From a virus (taxonomy: Duplodnaviria; Heunggongvirae; Uroviricota; Caudoviricetes): a stretch of 40,896 bases of DNA. The position numbers were made by a program, and so were the translations under genes. The notes under the pieces were generated by a model that was not told where the DNA came from, searched no databases, and was given only the letters and a program-made list of their open reading frames with translations. The number at the start of each line of letters is the position of its first letter. Positions within the stretch are counted from its first letter, which is position 1. The DNA lies in IMG/VR virus record IMGVR_UViG_2874920711_000001; one strand, given 5' to 3'. Below are positions 30,926 to 33,541 of the stretch, piece by piece.

Positions 30926-31207
30926 ATGAACCCTATGCTTGATTATTGTTTTACCTCTGCACCTCAGCAGACCATAACACACACCGGAATCAAAAAATTG
31001 TTATGGATAATCAAAAAAACCCTCCAGCAGAAAGGTGATCCCGATTTAATTCCCTGTGCTTATGGCCTGTGTGACAGACAAGTAAGCCCTGATAAGGCTT
31101 ACACTGCTGAACTTATTTACATGCACGGAACCATGATGAGGAAAAAGAAACGCAAATATTGTAGTGAAATCTGTGCCGAAAAAGACCAGATGGCACACGA
31201 ACTTTAA
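30926..31207 (+). CDS. Hypothetical small Cys-rich (putative zinc-binding) protein (93 aa)
   Basis: Contains CAYGLC and KYCSEIC cysteine pairs. Confidence 0.4.
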   Translation: MNPMLDYCFTSAPQQTITHTGIKKLLWIIKKTLQQKGDPDLIPCAYGLCDRQVSPDKAYTAELIYMHGTMMRKKKRKYCSEICAEKDQMAHEL

Positions 31208-31281
31208 TTAACTGAATATTCGAAACTGAATTTATGCCAGCAATGGCAGGGATTCACTCAACCTTAAAAAAGGAAACAGCA

Positions 31282-31578
31282 ATGAGTATTATTGAATGTG
31301 AAATTGAACTTGATGTTATTAACGATTCTCTCGCCGAATTTAAATGTGGGAATACATTACATAGTTTCATTCAGATTTCCCAAAAAGAAAACGTCACGGT
31401 AATTATTGATGGCTGTTACGTTCTGAGAACATTTGATTGTTGTGTATGTGCCATTAAAGAAATTGCATTACTCACAGCTCGCATTGAAGAGGCTGACAAG
31501 AAATACGGTATCAGTTATCAACGACTGAAAGAACTCTCTCATATCGCATCATCAGTTCGTTTCTTTTATGCAATCTGA
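31282..31578 (+). CDS. Hypothetical protein (98 aa)
   Basis: ATG preceded by AAGGAAACAGCA; ORF track lists a longer version from 31234. Confidence 0.4.
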   Translation: MSIIECEIELDVINDSLAEFKCGNTLHSFIQISQKENVTVIIDGCYVLRTFDCCVCAIKEIALLTARIEEADKKYGISYQRLKELSHIASSVRFFYAI

Positions 31579-31601
31579 ATATGAGTTGAGGTTAAAAAAC
31601 A

Positions 31602-32672
31602 ATGAGCACCGATAAACAAGTTTACCCACTGTATTACGAAGCAAAAAATGACAAAGTAAGAAAACGCCTCGGTATTAAAGGCGGTTTTTACTGGGCTGAA
31701 GCGAAAAAATTATCCATTGCCATCTCCCGTGGTGCTGTTGCGATTGACGATGCAGGCTACGATGAAGATGACTTTAAAAAACCTGTTCACGTCAATTTGC
31801 CCGTTGTTGATGACCTCCCGCCAGAAGGCGTGTTTGATACGGAATTCTGCAACCGTTACGAAAAAGGCGGGGAAGATGGCATCACAATGGTATTTATCGC
31901 ATCTTCTCCCTCTGTTCAGGACAAACCAGCCAGCACTGACAATACCAACGTCAACGGCGAAGACATGACAGAAATTGAGGAGAACATGCTCCTGCCAGTT
32001 TCCGGTCAGGAACTGCCCATTCGCTGGCTTGCTCAACACGGCAGCGAAAAACCGGTAACGCACGTTTCACGCGACGGACTCCAGGCATTACACATTGCTC
32101 GGGCTGAAGAACTACCGGCTGTTACTGCCCTGGCTGTTTCCCACAAAACCAGCCTGCTCGACCCGCTGGAAATTCGCGATCTCCACAAACTGGTTCGTGA
32201 CACTGACAAAGTTTTCCCTAATCCTGGTAATTCAAGCCTGGGACTGATAACTGCTTTTTTCGAAGCATACCTGAACGCTGACTACACCGATCGAGGACTG
32301 CTGACAAAAGAGTGGATGAAGGGTAATCGTGTTTCACACATCACTCGCACGGCTTCCGGTGCTAATGCTGGCGGCGGAAACCTCACCGATCGCGGCGAAG
32401 GTTTCGTACACGATCTGACGTCACTGGCGCGCGACGTAGCCACTGGCGTACTGGCCCGTTCAATGGATCTGGACATCTATAACCTTCATCCGGCACACGC
32501 TAAACGCATTGAGGAAATTGTCGCTGAAAATAAACCGCCCTTTTCTGTTTTCCGCGACAAATTCATCACCATGCCTGGCGGGCTGGATTATTCCCGCGCC
32601 ATCGTGGTTGCGTCCGTAAAAGAAGCACCAATTGGGATCGAGGTCATCCCGCGCACGTCACTGAATATCTGA
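31602..32672 (+). CDS. Hypothetical phage early protein (356 aa)
   Basis: Long uninterrupted ORF in the early-left operon; no motif recognised. Confidence 0.5.
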
Positions 32673-32719
32673 ACAAGGTACTGACTGAAACCGATCATGC
32701 CAACCCTGATCCGGAAATC

Positions 32720-33541
32720 GTGGATATTGCCTGCGGTCGCTCCTCTGCCCCGATGCCGCAGCGTGTAACAGAAGAAGGAAAACAGGATGATGAAGAAAAA
32801 CCGCAACCATCTTGCGCAATGGCAGATGAACAGGCAACGGCTGAAACAGTGGAACCGGATGCAACTGAACATCATCAGGACACGCAGCCGCTGGATGCTC
32901 AGTCACAGGTAAATGCTGTTGATGCGAAATATCAGGAACTGCGGGCAGAACTCCATGAAGCCCGGAAAAACATTCCGCCCAAAAATCCTGTCGATGCAGA
33001 CAAATTACTGGCTGCCTCTCGCGGAGAATTTGTTGAAGGGATTAGCGACCCGAATGATCCGAAATGGATTCCCGGTCATCATATCTCCTCAAATGAAGTC
33101 AAAAAAACGGAAAATGAAGTGCGACAGACTGAAGATAAACAGCACCAGAACAGCGAACCGGAGGAGGGAACACCCTGCAATCAGACTGGCGAGGATAACT
33201 GCCCTGACTGTGGCGCGGTGATGGGAGACGCAACTTATCAGGAAACTTTTGACGAAAAAAAACCAGATGAAGCACAGGAAGAAGAGCCGAAGAAAACGGA
33301 AAAAGCTGATGATTTGTTACCGGAGAACGCTGGCAGCGATCAGCATAATGATAGCAATAATGAAACTGGCGAAGATGAACTCAACTGGAAAAAACAGGTG
33401 TTGATTGCGGCGGTTTACGGTTTATGTGCGAATCCTGCGTGCATAGCCTATGCGCCTGCAATCCCTGACATCGCAATGATGATTGCCAACAAGCTTGAAA
33501 ATTTTGGAGTGACCAGTGATGAGCGCTTACCCGATTTTTGA
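32720..33541 (+). CDS. Hypothetical highly acidic protein with hydrophobic C-terminal segment; start uncertain
   Basis: Asp/Glu-rich, low-complexity body; C-terminal stretch [35 protein letters not shown]; overlaps the gam start. Confidence 0.4.

Follow-up and report, generated by a model that had tools for sequence, protein, structure and literature searches.

Gene content of the early-left block

The early-left region of the Caudoviricetes genome IMGVR_UViG_2874920711_000001 raises the question of what is encoded between the Rha-family antirepressor gene and gam. In the stretch of 40,896 nucleotides analysed here (hereafter the window), the preliminary description listed four consecutive intact genes at this position, none of which it could assign to a family, and proposed the block as a likely site of undescribed accessory functions. 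All four ORFs were recovered at the same positions, and their early-left placement was confirmed by domain matches to both flanking genes (Table 1). However, the block (30926-33541) very probably comprises three genes rather than four. In lambdoid prophages of the Rac or Gifsy kind, the early-left recombination module opens with a conserved 'leader' made up of ydaE, a small ORF and recE, and the block very probably corresponds to it.

The view that none of the ORFs belongs to a known family does not hold for three of them. Profile matches place ORF1 in the YdaE family (NF041288) and both ORF3 and ORF4 in exonuclease VIII (NF007259), such that named families cover three of the four frames; ORF2 fell into phrog_2434, a family without an assigned function. 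The sequences and families of the block are already known and are common prophage genes, with existing RefSeq annotation (WP_001069000.1, WP_000022246.1 and 'RecE family exodeoxyribonuclease'). The ORFs are real conserved coding sequences: in a collection of 15 billion proteins the identical 93-aa product of ORF1 was found on 404 contigs and the identical 98-aa product of ORF2 on 223. Gene order in the window is Rha, YdaE, ORF2, RecE-2, Gam, AAA_24, DUF1187, xis and int, and the order ydaE, ORF2-like gene, recE is common to Gifsy-1, Gifsy-2, HK225 and SPN3UB. About 1.9 kb of the 2.6 kb block is taken up by the RecE-family gene, which is part of the recombination module. Sequence and profile searches of the PDB, run for each ORF and for a profile of the RecE N-terminal region, gave no meaningful match, and a promoter and terminator scan gave no signal above shuffled expectation that alters this picture.

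Table 1. Features of the block and its flanking genes (positions in the window).
Feature	Position	Strand	Evidence
Rha-family antirepressor ORF	30196-30909	+	PF09669, E 2.8e-32
ydaE-family gene (ORF1), 93 aa	30926-31207	+	NF041288, phrog_6751
ORF2, STM2631 / HK225 gp35 family, 98 aa	31282-31578	+	phrog_2434
RecE-family gene without nuclease domain ('RecE-2' type), 646 aa in frame	31602-33541	+	NF007259, PF06630
ORF3, 356 aa	31602-32672	+	NF007259 positions 1-351
Frame-break site, CCC versus CCCC in near-identical relatives	32648-32650	+	DNA comparison
ORF4, 273 aa	32720-33541	+	NF007259 positions 375-596
Conserved 55-aa hydrophobic C-terminal tail, replacing the nuclease domain	33374-33541	+	relatives, dN/dS
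gam (RecBCD inhibitor)	33519-33815	+	PF06064, E 8e-56
AAA_24 (Sak4-like) ATPase gene	33821-34579	+	PF13479, E 3.4e-14

A split RecE-family gene and the origin of the frame break

Comparison with relatives identifies ORF3 and ORF4 as two halves of one RecE-family gene. The two ORFs matched successive parts of the 877-position exonuclease VIII model NF007259 (E 1.5e-199, 665 bits and E 2e-94, 317 bits, respectively), and ORF4 starts with GTG and has no ribosome-binding site. A single intact ORF of 646 aa spans both in near-identical E. coli and Shigella prophages, among them that of E. coli CFSAN029787, the DNA of which is 99.9% identical to the window; L001, P0014 and others have the intact ORF. 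The block is thus not free of frame breaks, as had been supposed: loss of one C in the window replaces 11 residues of the protein by VIPRTSLNI and a stop codon. A programmed frameshift at this site was rejected, since in relatives the whole protein lies in a single frame.

The missing C most likely reflects homopolymer under-calling in the assembly, because the other indels nearby that could be scored are likewise all losses of one base within G or C runs. Compared with near-identical references, the only indels were one-base deletions in such runs, at 30237 and 32648-50 and at six more sites in 25808-29860, where one further ambiguous site lies near a G run; the deletion at about 30237 (G4 to G3) also breaks the annotated long form of Rha in the window. 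A genuine pseudogene, produced by slippage in the C4 run during decay of a defective prophage, is a rather less probable explanation. Pseudogenes accumulate in Shigella-type genomes and homopolymer slippage is a genuine mutational route; moreover, the genome is rich in insertion sequences, with three copies of one IS block in 41 kb, one of which (2.49 kb, 34577-37060) truly disrupts the neighbouring AAA_24 gene. Against real decay, the scorable differences from near-identical references are always losses and never gains, and in the closest comparison (30040-34387) one-base losses are about as frequent as substitutions (2 versus 2). The IS present three times in the window varies in the same manner, its copies differing from each other by four one-base indels, all of them in C4 or G4 runs. 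Finally, the identical 356-aa and 273-aa products occurred together in the 15-billion-protein collection on one contig only, that of the window's own genome, and in no other assembly. Pseudogene counts from this genome need care, because this break, like many nearby, looks like homopolymer under-calling. Whatever the cause of the split, the recombination module as a whole is predicted to be non-functional in this strain, because the IS block cuts the Sak4-like gene at about 34577; in L001 this gene encodes an uninterrupted product of 365 aa.

A RecE relative that lacks the nuclease domain

The in-frame 646-aa protein is, on domain evidence, a RecE paralogue that retains the whole non-catalytic N-terminal part (about 590 aa, including an acidic region and a Cys-rich knuckle) and has no exonuclease domain. 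Its match to NF007259 (1070 bits, below the curated cut-off of 1269) covers only positions 1-596 of 877, and the N-terminal RecE domain PF06630 was detected in ORF3 (E 2.5e-38) and in the 646-aa form (E 6.2e-38). Neither the 646-aa form nor gp06 of phage 75/02 Stx contained the PD-(D/E)XK exonuclease domain PF12684, whereas the K-12 RecE control was positive (E 4e-28). As the nuclease domain is absent, 5'-3' exonuclease activity on double-stranded DNA would not be expected.

A close known counterpart is RecE of the K-12 Rac prophage (exonuclease VIII, b1350, 866 aa), which is 79% identical to the 646-aa form over RecE residues 40-585, where the alignment stops. The two share the PF06630 region, the acidic stretch and the Cys knuckle, and each is encoded in the early-left operon behind ydaE and one small ORF; they differ in their first 45 or so residues. 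K-12 RecE continues into PF12684 (residues about 564-866), whereas the window protein instead ends in the 55-aa hydrophobic tail. In addition, the window allele has three of the four cysteines of the CxxC...CxxC knuckle, while K-12 RecE and 75/02 Stx gp06 have all four. Downstream of K-12 recE lies recT; adjacent to the window gene we found no recT partner, its neighbours being gam and the AAA_24 ATPase gene. In the loci compared, the RecE-2 gene always lies directly 5' of gam and overlaps it, followed either by RecT/Bet and a YqaJ exonuclease or by AAA_24; the overlap between the end of the RecE-2 gene and the start of gam seen in the window recurs in L001, L004 and L006-L009. An AlphaFold2 model of the intact 646-aa protein (16-sequence alignment) had a pLDDT of 30 and that of ORF2 (12-sequence alignment) a mean pLDDT of 47, both too poor for a fold search; the homologues used were too alike (63-100% identity) to help.

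Is this form simply a decaying recE remnant, which has lost its nuclease domain and recT and whose remaining part is fused to junk beside a lambda-type gam module? The score below the equivalog cut-off and the end of the match at model position 596 are in keeping with such a remnant, and in PGAP annotation the uninterrupted 646-aa ORF is listed as a pseudogene with the remark 'missing C-terminus'. An origin by recombination between a recET-type and a gam-bet-exo-type module is also plausible. We nevertheless consider decay improbable, because the supposed junk has been kept: tail dN/dS is 0.14-0.32 at dS of 0.38-1.07, the lowest value being maintained between lineages at a dS of about 1, and dN/dS for the whole gene is 0.25-0.33. 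Full-length ORFs persist across 56 to 100% identity, and isolated Stx phages carry the gene. These values indicate that the nuclease-less form is under purifying selection and is a natural architecture rather than a deletion scar.

The tail itself, a putative helical element, has a Kyte-Doolittle maximum of 1.72 (19-residue window), and its last 23 nt overlap the start of gam. It is conserved in 75/02 Stx gp06 and in 63 proteins among the RecE-homologue matches listed. Tail-bearing copies were found in the isolated phages 75/02 Stx, POCJ13, phiSTEC1589-Stx1c and PhiR5_2 and in 106 of 5426 complete E. coli genomes. A profile of the tail gave eight matches among 1.84 billion representative sequences, all of them C-terminal or short fragments and three named exodeoxyribonuclease VIII, and a word-indexed protein search with a C-terminal segment of 72 aa, tail included, yielded short fragments only. 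The idea that the tail was borrowed from some other gene upstream of gam was dropped, as the exhaustive profile search led only to the C-termini of the matched proteins, the named ones being exodeoxyribonuclease VIII, or to short fragments. A tblastn search of phages with 52 aa of the tail gave no match even though 75/02 Stx carries it, presumably owing to the low-complexity filter, and this negative was discarded.

The best 120 homologues include intact proteins of 646-671 aa (80-100% identity) from E. coli, Shigella and E. albertii, together with two other architectures in which the RecE N-terminal region is joined to PF12684 or to a 3'-5' exonuclease domain, PF16473. The latter, with its different nuclease, further argues against a remnant and for an N-terminal part that is a reusable module. 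A close phage relative is the 682-aa 'exonuclease VIII' of 75/02 Stx (gp06) and POCJ13, which likewise combines the RecE N-terminal part with the conserved tail, has no nuclease domain and, in 75/02 Stx, is encoded directly upstream of gam. Its overall identity to the window protein is only 56%, and its partners are Bet/RecT and Exo rather than the Sak4-like ATPase.

RecE relatives without a nuclease domain have been described in lambdoid early-left operons as 'RecE-2', without assigned roles, in a study that calls them 'distantly related' to the RecE of Rac (Zheng et al., Genome Res 2025, PMC12315714). The window gene fits this class by description, as a nuclease-less RecE relative in an early-left operon with recombination-module neighbours, although membership in that study was defined by AlphaFold 3 fold and is assigned here from domain searches.

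Two small genes upstream of recE

ORF1 is, by profile and cysteine pattern, a small Cys4 zinc-finger protein of the YdaE family, with zinc binding predicted. It matched NF041288 (YdaE_coli) at E 6.5e-25 and 87 bits (cut-off 35) and phrog_6751 over its full length (E 1.6e-46), and PF27493 is listed for the gene product. The Cys4 zinc-finger-like domain occupies the C-terminal 52 aa, over which ORF1 is 58% identical to YdaE of the Rac prophage (b4526, 56 aa, annotated as a zinc-binding protein), and its four conserved cysteines (C44-x4-C49 ... C79-x3-C83, a CX4C ... CX3C pattern) align with K-12 YdaE. Gene order around ydaE in Rac is as in the window. ORF1 differs in having a 41-aa N-terminal extension before the domain, the form represented by phrog_6751 and also present in L010-L012. 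GGAG lies 9 nt 5' of its ATG.

ORF2 is preceded by an AGGAA ribosome-binding site 7 nt before position 31282, and would be 114 aa long if started at the upstream ATG at 31234. It matched phrog_2434 (E 9.3e-39) and had no match in Pfam, NCBIfam, PADLOC or PDB. Homologues with 31-37% identity are found in Gifsy-1, Gifsy-2, HK225, SPN3UB and FSL SP-016, in each case between a YdaE homologue and RecE; for the hypothetical proteins STM2631 of Gifsy-1 and gp35 of HK225 the similarity extends over about 85% of the length of ORF2. Unlike the window, the Gifsy-1 and HK225 phages carry a full nuclease-bearing RecE together with RecT. The name 'DNA breaking-rejoining protein' given to ORF2 in many records is unsupported for a protein of 98 aa with no recombinase domain.

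The slot between ydaE and recE is occupied by different genes in different phages: ORF2 in the window, RacC in K-12 Rac, and elsewhere gp07 of 75/02 Stx or DicB/DUF1482. RacC (91 aa) resembles ORF2 in size and in its position immediately 5' of recE, but the two have no detectable sequence or profile similarity, and a divergent RacC was rejected as the identity of ORF2 (BLASTP E 2.5, hhalign probability 0.1%). Comparison also showed ORF2 to be unrelated to 75/02 Stx gp07. RacC has been shown experimentally to block retron toxins (RcaT) (bioRxiv 10.1101/2020.06.22.160242). Because the corresponding slot in K-12 Rac holds this blocker, it is a fair hypothesis by position that ORF2 has an accessory or counter-defence function.

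This bears on the original reading of the block as a set of undescribed genes that act independently in host takeover, exclusion or anti-defence, which we now consider unlikely. Part of it stands: the position is early-left, ORF1 and ORF2 are without known or demonstrated function, and the ORF2 slot holds a retron-toxin blocker in K-12 and varies in content between phages. However, ORF3 and ORF4 make up one RecE-family gene, and ORF2 is not homologous to RacC. No match to defence or anti-defence families was found for the block proteins; a search of PADLOC-DB 2.0 with the four ORFs and the repaired 646-aa protein, of the kind that the preliminary description had suggested, gave zero matches at E <= 0.01. 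Furthermore, ydaE and ORF2 accompany recE across E. coli and Salmonella phages, so that a role linked to recombination fits at least equally well. Homology to ordinary phage housekeeping proteins was found for two of the four ORFs, and for a third by family name only.

Possible roles of the block

With the block read as a recombination-module leader, we tentatively propose, at somewhat less than even confidence in the mechanism as a whole, that the nuclease-less RecE is co-produced with Gam and contributes to the module non-catalytically, as an accessory factor or scaffold. It may supply the function of the RecE N-terminal region that boosts linear-linear recombination, while nuclease and annealing activities would come from separate genes, namely Exo with Bet/RecT in relatives and the Sak4-like ATPase here. 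The tail could mediate oligomerisation, bind a partner or make contact with the membrane. The small products of ydaE and ORF2, made early and from the same transcript as the module, would plausibly have a modulating or counter-defence role comparable to that of RacC.

A more far-reaching reading, which we regard as doubtful, holds that RecE-2 is a distinct functional protein that has exchanged the exonuclease domain for a hydrophobic helical hairpin specific to its family. It would be produced with Gam from overlapping frames and would have a non-catalytic part in the recombination and anti-RecBCD module, as a factor that acts at DNA ends, binds partners or tethers to the membrane. The accompanying genes ydaE and ORF2 would encode small metal-binding counter-defence or regulatory proteins akin to RacC.

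The record for this locus is corrected from four unknown genes to three common prophage genes. For annotation, both pipeline labels given to the nuclease-less form, 'exodeoxyribonuclease VIII' and pseudogene, are misleading. For the family, the RecE N-terminal region is a reusable module that can be joined to a PD-(D/E)XK nuclease or to a 3'-5' exonuclease, or can lack a nuclease altogether.

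Genes between the Rha antirepressor gene and gam

All four reading frames of the block between the Rha antirepressor gene and gam (ORF1 to ORF4) were found at the positions given in the preliminary description, which had presented them as uncharacterised genes, intact, unassignable to any family, in a position where lambdoid phages carry anti-defence genes among others, and the likeliest place for a new accessory function. This picture held in part: the ORFs are real and ORF2 matched only an uncharacterised family, but ORF1 belongs to the YdaE family, and ORF3 and ORF4 match an exonuclease VIII model and form one RecE-type gene. 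The genes of the block are common, annotated prophage genes, and proteins of the class encoded by ORF3 and ORF4 have been reported in print as 'RecE-2'.

Coordinates of the block, its flanks and other features of the window
Feature	Position	Strand	Remarks
ORF1 (93 aa)	30926-31207	+	Shine-Dalgarno-like sequence upstream
ORF2 (98 aa; 114 aa from upstream ATG at 31234)	31282-31578	+	Shine-Dalgarno-like sequence upstream
ORF3 (356 aa)	31602-32672	+	Shine-Dalgarno-like sequence upstream
ORF4 (273 aa)	32720-33541	+	GTG start picked mechanically; no Shine-Dalgarno-like sequence
Rha-family gene	5′ of ORF1	+	Flank of block
gam	33519-33815	+	PF06064, E 8e-56; 3′ of block
AAA_24 Sak4-like ATPase gene	33821-34579 / 37061-37707	+	After gam; split by IS block
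IS block (2.49 kb), three copies	6033-8518; 23323-25807; 34577-37060		Third copy contains IS3-family transposase at 34620-35438 (-) and a second element
isrK Hfq-binding RNA	30119-30195	+	Rfam, 64.8 bits, above gathering score
C4 antisense RNA	30220-30306	+	Rfam, 68.8 bits, above gathering score
DicF	29846-29896	+	Rfam, sub-threshold, 28.6 bits (gathering score 48)
STnc100	29908-30037	+	Rfam, sub-threshold, 33.5 bits (gathering score 47)
Portal-like ORF	8953-10392	-	Pfam Phage_portal_3, E 2e-14

ORF3 and ORF4 are a single gene

ORF3 and ORF4 matched positions 1-351 (E 1.5e-199) and 375-596 (E 2e-94), respectively, of the exonuclease VIII model NF007259. The same 2.6 kb is present at 99.9% identity in E. 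coli CFSAN029787, where a single 646-aa ORF covers both frames, and the sole length difference is one C (CCC at 32648-32650 in the window, CCCC in relatives). Thus a block described as free of frame breaks contains one gene split by a missing base. Among the matches listed, the intact 646-aa protein and close variants occur in S. flexneri, S. sonnei, S. boydii, S. dysenteriae and E. coli, while the exact 356-aa and 273-aa products were found in one contig only, the window's own.

We consider it fairly likely that this frame break is an assembly artefact. When 29859-34387 was compared with a near-identical locus carrying the intact ORF, another single base proved to be missing from the window, at ~30237 (G4 to G3); this loss disrupts the long Rha ORF, and downstream of 30040 only two substitutions were seen. 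In 25808-29860, alignment to an E. coli reference of 99.2% identity gave six clear deletions of one base, each within a C run, and one ambiguous gap of 2 bp next to a G run, with no one-base insertions. The three IS copies differ from each other by four one-base indels, all in C4 or G4 runs, and five substitutions. Relative to near-identical references, all small indels within 25808-34400 were short losses at G/C homopolymers (26163, 26184, 26873, 27054, ~27201, 28033, 28259, 30237 and 32648-50), apart from one 6-bp gap near 27224. A pattern of this kind, one-directional and restricted to homopolymers, is typical of systematic under-calling. The window derives from contig CP026824.1 of NCBI assembly GCA_002949875.1, and under-calling there probably explains the earlier impression that most genes of the region are broken; as a practical warning, such under-calling would make many genes of this assembly look broken.

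Neighbouring RNA matches and annotations

The isrK and C4 matches lie inside the 5′ part of a long 'Ash+Rha' ORF annotated by PGAP in relatives, and the G loss at ~30237 falls within the C4 match. By analogy with P1/Gifsy-type c4/isrK antirepressor loci, the true antirepressor start may lie downstream (Met ~30361). The sub-threshold DicF and STnc100 matches are 5′ of this region. Elsewhere, beside the terminase, relatives of 8953-10392 carry the annotation 'anti-CBASS protein Acb1 family protein'; the window ORF there looks like a portal protein from its Phage_portal_3 match, making the Acb1 name doubtful.

A nuclease-less RecE variant with a conserved tail

The 646-aa protein is 79% identical to residues 40-585 of K-12 RecE and contains PF06630; it lacks the PF12684 PD-(D/E)XK domain, which was detected in the K-12 RecE control. 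The last RecE-like residue is followed by a 55-residue tail, which is not deletion-junction junk, since it is conserved in the gp06 protein (682 aa, 56% identical overall) of Shigella phage 75/02 Stx, is present in 63 proteins among the matches listed in the RecE protein search, and has a dN/dS of 0.14-0.32 at dS 0.38-1.07. Moreover, a tail profile searched against 1.84 billion representative proteins gave eight matches, all at the C-terminus or in short fragments, three of them named exodeoxyribonuclease VIII in the earlier protein search. The protein is therefore a natural nuclease-less RecE variant whose tail is conserved and under selection. A tblastn search with the tail gave no match, a false negative probably due to low-complexity masking.

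Among the matches listed, the same N-terminal part is joined to PF12684 (866-899 aa), to a PF16473 3′-5′ exonuclease domain (814 aa) or to nothing but the tail (646-671 aa). Four isolated phages, 75/02 Stx, POCJ13, phiSTEC1589-Stx1c and PhiR5_2, have tail-bearing copies, and of 5426 complete E. coli genomes 106 carry them, O104:H4 included. The 814-aa form (PF16473, Rv2179c-like) was seen in three E. coli prophages next to ompW (L010, at 5001-7445, L011 and L012), with Rha, YdaE (93 aa) and RacC genes upstream, xis/int directly downstream, and neither gam nor a gene for an annealing protein. The CxxC...CxxC knuckle of K-12 RecE and 75/02 Stx gp06 retains only three Cys in the window allele (33170-33230, residues ~524-540), its first Cys being absent from the whole 646-aa lineage. 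AlphaFold2 models of RecE-2 (pLDDT 30) and ORF2 (pLDDT 47) were too poor for use, and PDB searches with the block proteins gave no matches.

ORF1 and ORF2

ORF1 matched the YdaE model NF041288 (87 bits, cut-off 35) and, from end to end, phrog_6751. Its C-terminal 52 residues share 58% identity with YdaE of the K-12 Rac prophage, annotated in RefSeq as a zinc-binding protein, and the cysteines of ORF1 follow the pattern C44-x4-C49 ... C79-x3-C83. For ORF2 the sole family match was phrog_2434 (E 9e-39), with none in Pfam, NCBIfam, PADLOC or PDB. Close relatives of ORF2 form a small group (16 clusters, all at least 63% identical), and tblastn found phage homologues at 31-37% identity in Gifsy-1 (STM2631), Gifsy-2, HK225 (gp35), SPN3UB and FSL SP-016; in the first four, whose annotation was inspected, the gene is flanked by those for a YdaE homologue and RecE. 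Within the family C22 and C56 are invariant and C53 almost so. Many public records name ORF2 (31234-31578, 98/114 aa) 'DNA breaking-rejoining protein', a name backed by no recombinase or other domain.

In K-12 Rac the slot just 5′ of recE is held by the small gene racC, as it is in L010-L012. In the window this slot is taken by ORF2, but ORF2 is not a RacC relative (BLASTP E 2.5; hhalign probability 0.1%). RacC was found to block the retron-Sen2 toxin RcaT most strongly, whereas RecE itself triggers this retron (bioRxiv 10.1101/2020.06.22.160242). YdaE and ORF2 are small Cys-bearing early proteins, and since the two genes accompany recE in both E. coli and Salmonella phages, a function connected with RecE or with counter-defence is plausible. 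No block ORF matched a defence or anti-defence model in PADLOC.

Proposed role of RecE-2

Lambdoid recombination modules were surveyed in 2025 in a paper that mentions 'RecE-2' proteins without a nuclease domain (PMC12315714); our literature search found the term in no other paper. The end of the RecE-2 gene overlaps gam in every context examined, and gam is followed by RecT/Bet and a YqaJ-type exonuclease or, as in the window, by an AAA_24 Sak4-like ATPase. There the ATPase gene is cut by an IS block at ~34577, so the module is defective in this strain regardless of the RecE-2 frame. The tail, which reaches a Kyte-Doolittle maximum of 1.72, a borderline value for membrane segments, may be an interaction, oligomerisation or membrane-contact element. 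We suggest that nuclease-less RecE would serve the recombination module as an accessory or scaffold without catalytic activity of its own, the catalytic functions of the module being supplied by separate genes.
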